Source: a virus
Lineage: Duplodnaviria > Heunggongvirae > Uroviricota > Caudoviricetes
Virus record (IMG/VR): IMGVR_UViG_3300029886_000031
Length of the DNA stretch: 8,161 nt
Direction: 5' to 3' (one strand)
Position numbers and translations under genes: made by a program
The notes under the pieces: generated by a model
Seen by the model: only the letters and a program-made list of their open reading frames with translations
Database searches by the model: none
Told to the model about the DNA's origin: nothing
In this document: positions 1,150 through 7,074 of the stretch, piece by piece
How the letters are laid out: each line of letters opens with the position of its first letter
Numbering within the stretch: the stretch's first letter is position 1

Positions 1150-1253
1150 ACAGCCTTCCCCTGAATAAATTAACCGCCACTTGCCATTCCGTACAGAAGT
1201 CGGATATCCTTCGCCCGAAAAGCATGAAACACATTTCTGCCATGCTAAAGAGA

Positions 1254-1288
1254 AACCCCGGTATCAGCAGATACCGGGGTTTTCTTTC
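1254..1288. terminator. Hairpin with pyrimidine/T-rich tracts on both sides; candidate bidirectional rho-independent terminator in the I-J spacer
   Basis: Perfect 12-bp inverted repeat AACCCCGGTATC (1254-1265) / GATACCGGGGTT (1270-1281) with 4-nt loop AGCA. Followed on plus strand by TTCTTTC; on minus strand the stem is followed by UCUCUUU. Confidence 0.5.
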
Positions 1289-1354
1289 ATGCCCACCGAT
1301 AATCCTGTTGGTTAAAACCGGTAATGGCATAAAAATTCTGAATATCTTCACATT

Positions 1355-1382
1355 TTCACACACTGACTGTGGCGCTTATAAT
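1355..1382 (+). promoter_or_regulatory. Candidate sigma70 promoter (-35 TTCACA, 16-bp spacer, -10 TATAAT) reading rightwards, opposite to the tail genes
   Basis: TTCACA at 1355-1360 (5/6 match to TTGACA), perfect TATAAT at 1377-1382, AT-rich upstream tract (ATAAAAATTCTGAATATC) that could act as an UP element. Pattern match only. Confidence 0.4.
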
Positions 1383-1388
1383 TTCGCT

Positions 1389-1487
1389 GCGTTAGTGTTT
1401 TTTTGCCCGAGTAACAAAAACAACTCCTTAACATTGATCTTCATTTGTCTGTCCCCGCAGCTCCGCGATCACTGCGGGATTTTTTTA
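1389..1487 (+). ncRNA. Candidate small RNA (about 100 nt) transcribed from the I-J spacer, from the predicted promoter to an intrinsic terminator
   Basis: Predicted start about 7 nt downstream of the -10 (around 1388-1390), 3' end at the terminator U-tract (around 1486). No plausible ORF with an RBS on this strand within the unit. Contains an unstructured A/U-rich stretch with CUCCUUA (1424-1430). Ends are inferred, not measured. Confidence 0.3.
1454..1487 (+). terminator. Rho-independent terminator (plus-strand orientation)
   Basis: GC-rich 7-bp stem CCCGCAG (1454-1460) / CTGCGGG (1472-1478), 11-nt loop, followed by ATTTTTTTAT (1479-1488). On the minus strand the hairpin is preceded, not followed, by the A/T run, so it is unidirectional for plus-strand transcripts. 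Confidence 0.6.
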
Positions 1488-1491
1488 TGTT

Positions 1492-2172
1492 TTATCCCTG
1501 TCGCCCGATAACCACGACCGTTCCGCCCCCGCCTTCATCACGGGTGCTGATGTCCTGGGATATACGGCGGGAGCCAACCAGCATTTCCCCGTAAGGCACC
1601 GGCATCGGGTTCCCCTGGGCAATCATGTTATCCAGCGAGGAAAAGTACGTGTTCTGTCTGCCGTTATCCGTTGCGCGGTAATCCGGTGTTTTTGCCTTCG
1701 GGGCCAGCATCTGGGCCACACCGCCCAGAATCATGCTGGCTCCAAGTGAAAACAGCATCGTGGTGGCAGAAAAACCACCGGCTGCCAGGGCTGAACCCCA
1801 TAACGCCATTGATGCCCCGGCAGTGAAGAAAGAGCCCACGATGGCTGCCGCCCCCAGCACAATCTGCAGTCCACCCTTTCCGGCCCCGGCCAGTCGCGGC
1901 ACAATATGGATGACCGTTCCCTCACCCAGCTGTTCGTGAAGACGGGCGTACACCGCCTCCGGTGCCGTGTCATAACCGGCAATACGTATCTGGTACCAGC
2001 CTTCGTTCATCTGACGGCGAAAGCCCGGCACCTGTAACGACAGCGCCCGGATGGCTTCCGCTGCCGTGTTCACATACAGGCTGAGGCGGCGGCCAAATCG
2101 TTGTAAATCCCCGTGAAGGCAGATGCGTGCCAGTGGCGGTGACGCCAGACAGAATGCGTTCGTCGTTGCCAT
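1492..2172 (-). CDS. I: Tail assembly protein I
   Basis: 226-aa translation (ARICLHGDLQRFGRR...AEAIRAL...WYQIRIAGYD...IHIVPRLAGAGKGG...QIVLGAAAIVGSFFTAGAS...LFSLGASMILGGVAQMLAPKAKTP...NTYFSSLDNMIAQGNPMPVPYGEMLVGSRRISQDISTRDEGGGG) strongly resembles lambda gpI as recalled. Its start lies 103 bp inside the 3' end of K, as in lambda. Confidence 0.93.
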   Translation of the reverse strand: MATTNAFCLASPPLARICLHGDLQRFGRRLSLYVNTAAEAIRALSLQVPGFRRQMNEGWYQIRIAGYDTAPEAVYARLHEQLGEGTVIHIVPRLAGAGKGGLQIVLGAAAIVGSFFTAGASMALWGSALAAGGFSATTMLFSLGASMILGGVAQMLAPKAKTPDYRATDNGRQNTYFSSLDNMIAQGNPMPVPYGEMLVGSRRISQDISTRDEGGGGTVVVIGRQG

Positions 2173-3521: not shown

Positions 3522-3847
3522 CAGTTCACCACCTGCTCAATCGTACAACTGAAATCACTGTGCCTGGCGTTATCTGTGACGCTCCACTCCCGGCACACCA
3601 CCCTCACCGTCAGGTTATGTTTCGGCGGTCGGTAACCACCATGCCACGATAAAAATTCATCCAGCCAGCGCCGGGTTGGTTCATCCGTCACCCGGAACAC
3701 CGCCTGAAACGTCTTCAGTCTGGCATTAAGTCCCGTCGGTCGGCGCTGTTCATAACCGTCACCAAACCGAACCCTCACCACCGACGGTTTCTCACTCACC
3801 TGCATCCCTTCACGCGGGACCAGATGCAGCGTTTTTATCTCAGCCAC
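3521..3847 (-). CDS. M: Minor tail protein M
   Basis: 108-aa translation with VRFGDGYEQR...GLNA...LKT and C-terminal ...EQVVN resembling lambda gpM; position between H and L. Start overlaps the H stop by a few nt. Confidence 0.88.
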   Translation of the reverse strand: MAEIKTLHLVPREGMQVSEKPSVVRVRFGDGYEQRRPTGLNARLKTFQAVFRVTDEPTRRWLDEFLSWHGGYRPPKHNLTVRVVCREWSVTDNARHSDFSCTIEQVVN

Positions 3848-6800
3848 TCAGCATTCCTCCGTCACGTCGCATGGACAGCATCACCGCCTGCACCCGCTGG
3901 TCAATCAGCTGCACAAGACTGCCTGCCGCCTCCGCCCCTATCTGTCCGTTAGCCCCGTCATTCTGAATGGCGATGTGGTAGACCGGGGAATACACCAGAC
4001 CGGCACTGCCGTTCATACTGCCCACCGCGCGTACGCCCAGCGAGCCATCCGCCGCCCGGGTCAGGGGCATAATGGCTTCAGGTCCGGCTTCCCCCATCAG
4101 CCCGGCCCCTTTTGCAAACGCAAAGTACGTGGGCGTGTCCACAATGCTGTTGCTGTACGCACTCAGGTTTGCCGAGGTATACACGCCGCCTTTTGCATTG
4201 GCCACCGCACCGCCCAGCCAGTCACCAATGCTGCCAATAAATCCTCCCGCACCGGACATACCGTTTGCCGCCGTCTTAATTCCGTTGACAATCGCAGCAT
4301 TCATAAGAACTTTTGAGATTTCCTGCAGTACGGATGAGGCCCAGTTGCGCCATTCCACTTTGTTTCCGTTCAGCATCTCCGTGATGTTATTCACCATCCC
4401 TGAGATACCCTCCGTCGCAAGCTGTGCTGCCTGTGAGGCGTAATCGGATGCATTGTCCACCCAGTTACTGAGCCCCTCCTGCAAGCCTTTCTGCCAGTCC
4501 GCACGCTGCGCATCCGATTCGGCATAAAAGGCTGCCTGGTCCTTAAGGCGTTCGCTCAGATACTGCGCGTTCTGTGCCCGTGCCTGTCTGTAAAAATCCT
4601 CACTGATATCCCCGGTCTGATACTGAGACTGAAGGTCCGCATCCTTCTGGCGGAAGCTGTCACGGATCTGCTGCAACTCCCGCATGCGTTCCCTGGCTCG
4701 TTCTCCCTGCCCGTATCCCAGCAGTTCGGCTTCATTTGATGCACGCGCAGCCACATTATCATTCTTCAGGGTCTCTTCCCGGGATCGCAACTGTTCCCGG
4801 ATTTTTTGCTGGTCAATCAGGGCCGCGTTACGCAGCAGTTCCTGCTTCTGCATCTCCGTCAGGGTTTTCAGTTCGCCCTGCGCAGTCTGGTACTTCAGCT
4901 TCGCCAGCTCTGTATTCTGACCCGCCAGTGCCAGTTGCTCTTTCTGCTGCTTCAGTAGCCGGGAAAAACTGTCTTCCGCTTTTTCCGTCTCTGATTTTCC
5001 ACCCCGGGATTTAGGTTTGTTCGCCTCGTTATTACGCCAGGCTTCCAGAGCATTACTGATATAACGCTGTCTCGCCTCCTGATACGAATCCCCCACAAAA
5101 CCAAGGTCATCCGCCGCATACCCCAGCCGGGCACGCTCTTTTTCCTCCCCCTTCAGTCGGGACAGGGCCAGCTCACGTTCTGTTTTTGTCAGGGCGCTCT
5201 GCTGTTTATCATCCAGGGTGGCCTGCGGCAGCCGTAACGGTACATTCACCAGTCCCTGACGCTGCTGAAGCAGTTCATTCCCCAGCCCCAGCAGACGGTT
5301 GAATTCCGTATGCTGACCGTTCATAACCAGCATGGACTGGTACACCTTATTCTGCTCTGCCGCCTGCTGACGAATTAACGCCACACGACGGTCTTCCAGC
5401 CCGGCAAGCACATCCTGAATGGACTGCGCTTTTTCCTGCATCTGTGCCAGACGGGACTGCTCAACGGCAAGCTGCTCTGTNNNNNNNNNNNNNNNNNNNN
5501 NNNNNNNNNNNNNNNNNNNNNNNNNNNNNNNNNNNNNCGGTTGTCCAGCCAGGGTTAGCCAGAACATACTGATATCCAGCGATTTTTTCCTGCAGGGATT
5601 TCACCCGGCTGGCCTGTTCATCAATCAGCCGGTTCTGCTCTGCCAGCGCCGCCCGTGTTCGTCCTTCATTATCTGAGGCTTCAGGCAAAGACATTGACGG
5701 CGTTTTATGCGCGATTTCATCTATCGTCAGTGCATACTGGCGCGCTGACTCCCTGGCCTGCTCCTGATTCTGGTACAGCGTATACCATGCTGCTGCCCCC
5801 AGCATCACCAGTCCGGGTACGCCACCAACCAGTCCCAACGCACCAGTCATCAGACGTGAGCCCACCGCCGTTGTACTGTTCAGCTCATTCTGGGCTGCGG
5901 TTCTGGCAGCAATATTTCTGTTCAGGCGTTCCTGTGTGGCCGCCAGACGGGCTTCTGCAGCAATCTGCATCTCCGTCCCGCGGGCTGCCGCCACAGCCTG
6001 CTGTGCACGGTACACGGCTGCCCTTGCCCGCGCCGTGGCAATCTGCGTCCCCCTGAGCTGTGCTTCCGCCAGTGCCACTTCATTACGTGCTGCCGTCACA
6101 AGTCCTGCCGTGGCAGACACCGCTCCGGAGGCCATATTGCCAAAGTACCGGGCAACCCCGACGGCAACCAGCGCCCCCGCGGCTGTTGCCACATTATCAA
6201 TATTACCGGCAACACCGTTCAGCACGCCGGAGAGCGTTTTCGTCGCTCCGCTGGCTTCATTCGCGCCACCCACCCAGGCCATAAAGGCGTTTTCCACCTT
6301 TGTGATCCCGTCAGAGACCGTTTCCGGCATGGCGGCATATTCATCACGCAATACCCCCAGCTGGCTGATTAACGCAGGAACGACTTTATCCGCCGTCAGT
6401 TTGCCGTCGTCCGCCATCGCCTTAAGGTCTTTACGGGCCACGCCCATACCCGCAGCCAGTGCACGTACGATCCGGTCTCCGCTTTCATTGACCGAATTAA
6501 ATTCCTCACCGCGTAACACACCCTGTGCCAGCGCCTGGCTGAACTGGGTGATCACCGAGCCCGCCTCTGCCGTACTGGCACCGGAGATTTTCAGCCCCGT
6601 GGAAATGGCCTCCGTCACCTTCAGCACATCATCAGCACTGTAACCATATTCACGCATTGAGGCTGCCGAGCGGGCAAACAGGGCCGCATTATCTGAAAAT
6701 GCCGTGCCCGTCCGCTGGCTGATATCCATCAGCACTTTCTGTGATGACGAAAATTCATCGGATGACTGCGACGCCTGTTTCAGTCGGGCATTCACGGAAC

Positions 6801-7074
6801 TCCATTCATCGGCCAGAGAAATCAGGTGTCCGGTGGCAAAGGCACCTGCAAATGCCCCCGCCGTTCCGGCAGCTGAAGCGCGGATTTCCGTCAACTGGCT
6901 GTTCAGCTCAGCCAGGGCGCGTCGCTGCACCCGGGCGACTGCGGCAGCCTGACGCCCGCCATTCTGCAGGGTCCGGTAATATTCACTGCCCATGCGGGAA
7001 GCCCGCTGGATCTCCGACTGGAATGACTGCGAATTTGCCGAAATTTTGATAATCAGTTCACGTAACGTCGCCAT
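3840..7074 (-). CDS. H: Tail tape measure protein (lambda gpH-like), interrupted by assembly gap 5481-5537; the two supplied ORFs (5461-7074, 3840-5567) are one gene
   Basis: Long Ala/Gln/Glu-rich coiled-coil-like translation typical of tape measure proteins. C-terminal segment (...GGFIGSIGDWLGGAVANAKGG...HIAIQNDGANGQIGAEAAGSL...RRDGGMLSG) resembles the lambda H C-terminus as recalled (...NNDGTNGQIGPAAL...MRDGGLFSG). Located between G/T and M. SD GGAGAAAGG upstream of ATG 7072-7074. Confidence 0.93.
5481..5537. other. Assembly gap / ambiguous bases (57 N) inside the tape measure gene
   Basis: Run of N seen directly. Tape measure reading frame differs on the two sides, so the true gap length is unknown. 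Confidence 0.95.

Follow-up and report, generated by a model that had tools for sequence, protein, structure and literature searches.

What does an AT-rich stretch of DNA encode when it lies between two tail genes that are neighbours in phage lambda? This question is raised by the I-J junction of an 8,161-nt piece of a Caudoviricetes genome (IMG/VR record IMGVR_UViG_3300029886_000031), hereafter the window, i.e., the whole stretch that was analysed. All window genes are on the minus strand and their order (G, T, tape measure, M, L, K, I, J) is that of lambda. The I-J spacer, bounded by the J start codon and the I stop codon, occupies positions 1150-1491 (342 bp) and contains 43.6% GC vs 58.0% in the rest of the window; both its coordinates and its AT-rich composition had been given correctly in the original prediction, which was made from the sequence alone. 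The lambda spacing, given there as a few tens of bp, was measured as 60 bp (15445-15504), and it holds no cassette. The prediction also proposed a small noncoding RNA on the plus strand, antisense to the tail operon, and this RNA corresponds to a published one: the spacer very probably encodes PasB, an Hfq-dependent, trans-acting small RNA (sRNA) of a noncoding moron. The PasB gene is already known experimentally and the element is not new; the interest that is left concerns the start site, a CRP-like box, the link to the EcOnc22-24 RNAs and the occurrence of cassette arrays.

The PasB gene (E2348CN_0006) was described in enteropathogenic Escherichia coli (EPEC) E2348/69, where its 83 nt run on the minus strand of NC_011601.1 from 1466343 to 1466261, in prophage PP6, between E2348C_1436 and E2348C_1437 (Pearl Mizrahi et al., 2021, Sci Adv, PMC8550237, table S6). 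These neighbours are homologous to I and J, with a spacer of 240 bp between them. When the E2348/69 coordinates were moved via an alignment that is free of gaps over the RNA and its promoter, PasB came to lie at 1404-1486 on the plus strand of the window. The reverse complement of the Northern probe used for PasB, AATCCCGCAGTGATCGCGGAGCT (PMC8550237, table S6), is found once in the window, at 1459-1481 (+), with zero mismatches. Over the RNA itself 82 of the 83 bases are identical without gaps, the sole difference being RNA position 27 (window 1430), which is A here and C in E2348/69. Since position 27 is the one reported to separate PasB from PasB-2 (Zhu, Shabalina and Storz, 2026, bioRxiv 10.64898/2026.05.13.724894), the window probably carries this common variant, as far as its sequence can tell. 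The likeness extends beyond the RNA: from about 1327 to past 1491 the spacers are identical save two bases, one within the RNA, while in the ~75 bp upstream of it, which hold the promoter and the box, a single base differs, at the far upstream edge. The 3′ end of PasB is placed 5 nt from the I stop codon in both. The window thus shares with the E2348/69 gene the locus, strand, terminator, near-identical promoter and box, and the exact probe match; it differs from it by the one substitution in the RNA and by its longer spacer, the latter owing to a different J-proximal module, and it is for the E2348/69 copy that expression is known.

The search of Rfam that had been suggested with the prediction returned no family, and it was the comparison with the literature that supplied the identity. 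The Rfam 15 covariance scan of the whole window gave 0 matches at the gathering threshold, and a scan of the spacer with E-values up to 10 yielded sub-threshold terminator-shaped noise only; among the E. coli matches listed, RefSeq has no annotation over the spacer. The noncoding nature of the plus strand, as predicted, calls for a qualification: a long plus-strand open reading frame (ORF), 885-1511, does span the spacer, yet it is not kept in other alleles, because the indels between alleles are not multiples of three. The view of the 342-bp insert as one sRNA moron also stood in part, namely for the I-proximal ~165 bp (1327-1491), and failed for the J-proximal 177 bp, which form a separate module absent from E2348/69. 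The moron concept in lambdoid phages is said to go back to the work of Juhala et al. in 2000; PasB has its own promoter and terminator and is located between genes that are adjacent in lambda. Like lambdoid morons and other prophage sRNAs (AgvB, AsxR, PasA/C/D, STnc100), it is a promoter-gene-terminator unit among late genes, expressed in the lysogen. Unlike PasB, AgvB, AsxR and PasA/C/D are located near the PR′/lysis region instead of the tail operon, and no sequence or Rfam relationship connects them with it. An identity with AgvB or AsxR, prompted by a C/A-rich stretch, was considered and rejected, as those genes occupy the PR′ moron site and the AgvB model matches elsewhere in the Sakai genome.

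The expression and Hfq evidence concerns the E2348/69 copy and the Sakai homologues, whereas the window allele is known from its sequence. Five prophage sRNAs were found in EPEC E2348/69 by Hfq RIL-seq (in which interacting RNAs are ligated and then sequenced), and PasB was detected as a Northern band at the expected size (PMC8550237). Its level in the hfq mutant, compared with wild type, was changed by log2 -6.8 and -2.4 in the two conditions studied (PMC8550237). Of the 37 RIL-seq interactions counted for PasB, 30 involved coding sequences or 5′ untranslated regions; its partners include core-genome RNAs, about 99-100% of its chimeras have it in second place, and it has a 7-U tract (PMC8550237). 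The RNA was commoner in overnight static lysogeny broth (LB) than in exponential Dulbecco's modification of Eagle's medium (DMEM; PMC8550237). A later survey reported 1,158 PasB matches, often as the sole Pas gene of a genome, all confined to Escherichia and Shigella, noted that the gene sits inside the phage structural-gene operon, and proposed that the seed lies immediately upstream of the terminator (Zhu et al., 2026, bioRxiv 10.64898/2026.05.13.724894).

How is such an RNA started and ended? A sigma-70 promoter, TTCACA-16-TATAAT, is located at 1355-1382 (+) and matches the consensus at 11 of 12 positions; it had been recognised in the original prediction and proved to be the only promoter-like site with at least 10/12 matches on either strand of the window. 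By chance an 11/12 site appeared in 5 of 300 window-like Markov simulations (1.7%) and in 25 of 3000 spacer-like ones (0.8%). The strong intrinsic terminator that had been seen close to gene I was likewise found: at 1454-1486 (+) a 7-bp stem CCCGCAG/CUGCGGG (1454-1460 and 1472-1478), whose arms are 100% complementary, encloses an 11-nt loop and is followed by U7 (1480-1486), the T-run ending 5 nt from the I stop codon. In most alleles the stem is near-invariant and the loop variable. Taken together with the promoter, this terminator predicts an RNA of 98 nt that starts at ~1389. The 3′ end of the ~100-nt RNA foreseen in the prediction was borne out (1486); its 5′ end and size were not, as the published RNA occupies 1404-1486 and is 83 nt long.

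The published 5′ end corresponds to window 1404, which places it 15 nt further downstream than the predicted start (~1389); in E2348/69 it was derived from RNA-seq coverage and the size of the Northern band (PMC8550237). Three explanations of this gap are possible: the RNA-seq coverage may under-represent the true 5′ end, a 98-nt primary transcript may be trimmed within the U-run 1398-1404, or transcription may truly start at ~1404-1406 from a candidate weak alternative -10, TAGTGT (1393-1398, +), which was deduced from the alignments and agrees with the published 5′ end. Comparison of alleles favours neither start, since both -10 positions are kept. The strong one reads nATAAT or TATCAT in every allele except one, in which it has decayed to GTGCAT, and the weak one reads TAnnnT in all alleles, including that with GTGCAT.

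The distribution of the element turned out to be broad. It is absent from lambda, as the prediction had supposed, but it is not rare: the spacer of the window is matched in 1612 of 5426 complete E. coli genomes (~30%), including ST131, O26, O111, O145 and O157, and diverged forms occur in many phages that carry Shiga toxin (Stx) genes. The spacer is also present in inducible phages, e.g., ASU11, and in 'PPompW' prophages. A sensitive BLAST search with the spacer as query yielded 127 phage records, mainly Stx1a-, Stx2a- and Stx2c-converting phages, which match the I-proximal half at 60-80% identity. When phage records, E. coli variants and 42 IMG/VR prophage loci were aligned, at least eight alleles of the RNA body were distinguished in the same I-J slot. 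Common to them, with few exceptions, are a TCTGA-N6-TCACA box, a -10 exactly 24 nt downstream of it, GCGTTA at the predicted start (+1), a U-run with an A-rich ARN run after it, YUCCUU, an AAUCUUC core, and the CCCGCAG/CUGCGGG stem with U6-8. Two loci (L028 and L041) have a type-2 PasB-like body and terminator, and in them unrelated DNA takes the place of box and -10, reaching as far as the predicted start; these copies are probably promoterless or re-promoted. In a box scan of species-representative genomes E. albertii was the only species found, besides three tiny contigs (L062, L063 and L065; 460-3408 bp) from the Asaia platycodi, Parendozoicomonas haliclonae and Streptomyces flavalbus assemblies, of which L063 additionally has the probe core of the EcOnc22-24 RNAs discussed below; these contigs are most likely contaminating E. 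coli DNA.

Some of the diverged alleles have been encountered before under other names. EcOnc22, EcOnc23 and EcOnc24 were listed in the Sakai prophages Sp15, Sp14 and Sp11, with an antisense orientation relative to the tail operon (Tree et al., 2014, Mol Cell, PMC4104026, table S2). They were reported as candidates from Hfq-CRAC (cross-linking followed by cDNA analysis), with an ~85-nt Northern band and 'destabilised' in the hfq mutant, and were probed with GGGAGAGAACGATGAAGATTAACTGATGAGTTA (PMC4104026). The reverse complement of the 23-nt core of this probe, GTTAATCTTCATCGTTCTCTCCC, lies within the RNA body of all three Sakai I-J spacers (Sp15, Sp14 and Sp11; L013 1337-1427, L014 and L015), antisense to the tail operon. 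Because the probe core falls in the PasB-like RNA of these spacers, PasB and EcOnc22-24 appear, on sequence grounds, to be alleles of one family. Placing EcOnc22 by coordinates alone was ambiguous, as the table refers to an older Sakai version (with AgvB as calibrator, the coordinates were shifted by +137 to +146 nt), and it was the probe sequence that settled the placement. EcOnc22-24 agree with PasB in slot (I-J) and strand (antisense); they have in common with it the CRP-like box, a -10 at the same position, the AAUCUUC core and the CCCGCAG/CUGCGGG stem with U7, and are alike in size (~85 nt) and in their loss in the hfq mutant; they differ in the RNA body, which is roughly three-quarters identical, and in a poor -35. 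The PasB entry in table S6 lists no homologue in enterohaemorrhagic E. coli (EHEC; PMC8550237), and the EcOnc names are not linked to PasB in either Pas paper (PMC8550237; bioRxiv 10.64898/2026.05.13.724894). The family was found independently twice, in EHEC (2014) and in EPEC (2021).

The slot can also hold more than one copy. In several IMG/VR prophages the I-J spacer is ~920 bp long and contains four PasB-like cassettes in the same orientation (L040, 7603-8432; also L023, L025, L031-L033, L051, L053 and L054), each of them provided with a box (TCTGA-N6-TCACA), a -10, a diverged RNA body and a terminator of its own. Of 5426 complete E. coli genomes, 67 carry the array in full; none of 50,697 phage records has it at ≥80% coverage. 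An example of a strain with four cassettes is E. coli STEC1587 (NZ_CP129259.1, 2865936-2866857). Zhu et al. (2026, bioRxiv 10.64898/2026.05.13.724894) do not describe the four-cassette array, and their analysis of tandem duplication covers PasA and PasD only.

The box repeated in each of these cassettes raises the question of a regulator. In the window the candidate CRP-like box is TCTGA-ATATCT-TCACA (1337-1352, +; centre 1344.5), which agrees with TGTGA-N6-TCACA at 9 of 10 positions and has a fitting T-rich flank; it is the sole such site in the window, vs 0.25 expected by chance. The half-sites are constant in nearly all alleles with an intact promoter (one allele has TATGA), while the N6 between them takes seven forms: ATATCT, TTTTCT, AATTCT, GTTTAT, AACTCT, ATTTCT and ATTTAT. 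Fixed half-sites around a variable N6 are what the binding site of a dimeric regulator would be expected to show. The sequence that separates the box from the -10 diverges freely and the spacing stays fixed at 24 nt. In several other alleles the -35 is poor (2-3/6; TTCTGT, TCCGCA, TCCGGC), which suggests the need for an activator. It is known that CRP-activated sRNA promoters exist, e.g., those of CyaR and McaS, and that Spot 42 is repressed by CRP. Like the CyaR/McaS-type promoters, that of PasB has a near-consensus pair of CRP half-sites upstream of an Hfq-type sRNA, and PasB is higher in glucose-free stationary culture; unlike in those promoters, the position of its box relative to the start is ambiguous (-44.5 or about -60.5) and the role of CRP is a predicted one. 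Spot 42 was ~5-fold higher in DMEM, the opposite of PasB in the same data (PMC8550237). The PasB promoter is not discussed in either Pas paper, and neither CRP nor promoters are mentioned in the later one (bioRxiv 10.64898/2026.05.13.724894). On balance, it may just as well be true as not that CRP activates PasB transcription.

Within the RNA body an A-rich (ARN)4 run, AACAAAAACAAC, followed by the Shine-Dalgarno-complementary CUCCUU, occupies 1413-1429 (+) and constitutes a candidate Hfq distal-face site and seed; C1426, C1427 and T1429 are invariant in alignment A2, and this stretch stays single-stranded when the 83-nt form is folded. A second candidate seed is the conserved core AUCUUC (1437-1442, +), which consists of invariant columns of alignment A2 and falls within the seed region proposed by Zhu et al. 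Alignment and fold together define CUCCUU and AUCUUC as two unpaired conserved islands, as the 5′ ~50 nt of the 83-nt form are essentially unpaired and the terminator hairpin is the only structure common to the alleles. Covariation was not countable, because the terminator alone is shared and its stem scarcely varies between alleles. From these elements the following mechanism may be proposed. The segment 1327-1491 is very probably a self-contained PasB gene, transcribed in the lysogen opposite the silent tail operon and ending at U7 just outside I. The RNA would contact Hfq through the U7 tail and the (ARN)4 run AAC-AAA-AAC-AAC, and CUCCUU and/or AUCUUC would pair with the ribosome-binding regions of host and prophage mRNAs. 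If cAMP (cyclic AMP)-CRP activated transcription via the TCTGA-N6-TCACA box, PasB would become a phage-borne output of host carbon status.

Several points weigh against this picture. No individual PasB target is validated in published work (PMC8550237; bioRxiv 10.64898/2026.05.13.724894), and the expression data come from the E2348/69 and Sakai copies. With a start at 1389 the centre of the box is at -44.5, out of phase with both -41.5 and -61.5, and the box fits a class I position (-59.5 to -61.5) only with a start at 1404-1406 from the weak TAGTGT. The box could also be a recombination linker between mosaic modules, conserved by recombination alone. The difference between LB and DMEM is, moreover, confounded by growth phase and by oxygen and aeration.

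The remaining half of the spacer, the nearly invariant J-proximal module (177 bp, 1150-1326), had escaped notice as a separate unit in the original prediction. It is missing in E2348/69, in Sakai and in those Stx phages that were examined; in its place they hold a different ~75-bp segment with its own hairpin. The module is present in 1446 genomes at ≥99% identity, always in the I-J spacer where examined. Within it the arms of a perfect 13-bp inverted repeat, AAACCCCGGTATC/GATACCGGGGTTT, enclose a 4-nt loop (1253-1282; fold z-scores -7.8 on the plus and -5.7 on the minus strand); this hairpin has U-rich tails on both strands, and the module also holds a promoter-like site, TTGCCA-18-TATCCT (1181-1210, +; 9/12), which would give an RNA of ~70 nt. 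Judged by these features, the module may be a bidirectional terminator or insulator, or else a second, ~70-nt plus-strand RNA gene. A relationship to the PasB cassette was tried and rejected, as local alignments were no better than shuffles with one exception, a 16-nt stretch (CCTTCCCCTGAATAAA; z = 4.1) shared by the module and the starts of the array cassettes. In E. coli VR50 (L017) the J-proximal module is joined to a type-2 PasB allele, which therefore places a recombination point at or near the conserved box.

Could the function of the spacer lie elsewhere than in a trans-acting sRNA? PasB is complementary over its full length to the late tail mRNA between I and J, every examined allele has the gene entirely within the I-J spacer and in antisense orientation, and the slot is conserved as the RNA body changes, which is to be expected if position is important. 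It was thus considered that PasB acts mainly in cis, forming with the late I-J mRNA during lytic growth a duplex of 83-98 bp that would be cut by RNase III or would otherwise shift the J:I expression ratio; in a variant of this explanation PasB might dampen leaky tail-gene expression in lysogens. A chiefly cis-acting role is nevertheless unlikely. PasB ends outside the I coding sequence and starts at least 250 nt from the J ribosome-binding site, lambda manages without such a gene, and RIL-seq revealed multi-target, trans-acting behaviour with core-genome partners. Neither the different bodies in the same slot nor the four-cassette arrays are needed for a cis role. A somewhat less improbable, yet still doubtful, explanation is that the key function of the spacer is exerted on the operon strand, where hairpins would tune J by partial termination, by offering sites for processing or by stabilising 3′ ends, the plus-strand RNA being a by-product. 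Every I-J spacer examined, lambda included, has in the operon direction, just upstream of J, a GC-rich hairpin and then a U-rich run: in the 60-bp spacer of lambda (L003 1446-1505) hairpin and T-run are AAACCGCCTGCGGGCGGTTTTGTCATTT, in E2348/69 and Sakai the hairpin CAGGCACC...GGTGCCTG is followed by TTGTTTTTG, and in the window the hairpin 1282-1253 is followed by UUUCUCUUU. These hairpins are unrelated in sequence between spacers, and their presence in all of them suggests a separate operon-strand function. Such a function accounts for the J-proximal hairpin, but not for the conserved plus-strand -10, box and U7 of the PasB cassette, and it leaves an abundant Hfq-bound plus-strand RNA unexplained; a role of the operon-strand hairpins probably coexists with the sRNA gene.

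That the spacer encodes a small protein is extremely improbable. Two minus-strand ORFs do exist, one of 22 aa (1376-1444, MKINVKELFLLLGQKNTNAAKL), whose ATG has GGGGA 7 nt upstream, and one of 66-77 aa across the J-proximal module, over which the record of phage ASU11 annotates a hypothetical protein, gp9c. Neither ORF matches any PHROG family, and RefSeq annotates nothing there among the E. coli matches listed. In type-2 alleles ACG stands in place of the ATG of the 22-aa ORF, and the frames downstream vary in length and sequence; the longer ORF runs through the perfect 13-bp hairpin and overlaps the J start. The small-ORF readings were ruled out by the lack of a PHROG match and by the start codon lost in other alleles. 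The preferred reading is thus still that of PasB as an Hfq-dependent, trans-acting sRNA.

The genes that frame the spacer are in agreement with its assignment. Tail assembly gene I (1492-2172, minus strand; stop codon 1492-1494) has a product that matches PHROG tail assembly families, and the 5′ part of tail tip gene J occupies 1-1149 on the same strand, with the start codon at 1147-1149 and an ORF at 193-1149, the frame being interrupted by 10 N (396-405). In E. coli E2865 an identical spacer lies between genes annotated as 'tail assembly protein' and 'phage attachment tail tip protein J'. The window has two runs of N, 396-405 (10 bases) and 5481-5537 (57 bases), and it is because of these runs that the J frame is broken, that the tape-measure ORF is split (3840-5567 and 5461-7074) and that an AT-rich dip appears at 5400-5600; all three were set aside as artefacts.

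What may the I-J junction mean for the phages that carry it? Taken as it stands, the finding has its value mainly in annotation, as RefSeq and Rfam have no label for this experimentally supported Hfq sRNA, whose spacer is matched in ~30% of complete E. coli genomes. The apparent family of PasB and EcOnc22-24, its shared CRP-like box and its tandem arrays bear, in addition, on the way prophages are wired into host regulation; these points suggest that the sRNAs of tail operons signal the carbon status of the host and become diverse through the swapping of cassettes. A more far-reaching view can be put forward only tentatively, as it is less likely to hold than to fail: the I-J junction of Escherichia lambdoid prophages would be a dedicated slot for sRNA cassettes, in which a CRP-type box, a -10 and a terminator frame a fast-diversifying body (at least eight alleles, PasB and EcOnc22-24 among them), cassettes are shuffled by recombination at the box and stacked up to four, and the J-proximal module is a second sRNA gene. 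If this were true, each prophage would plug a different set of seeds into the cAMP-CRP/Hfq network of its host.

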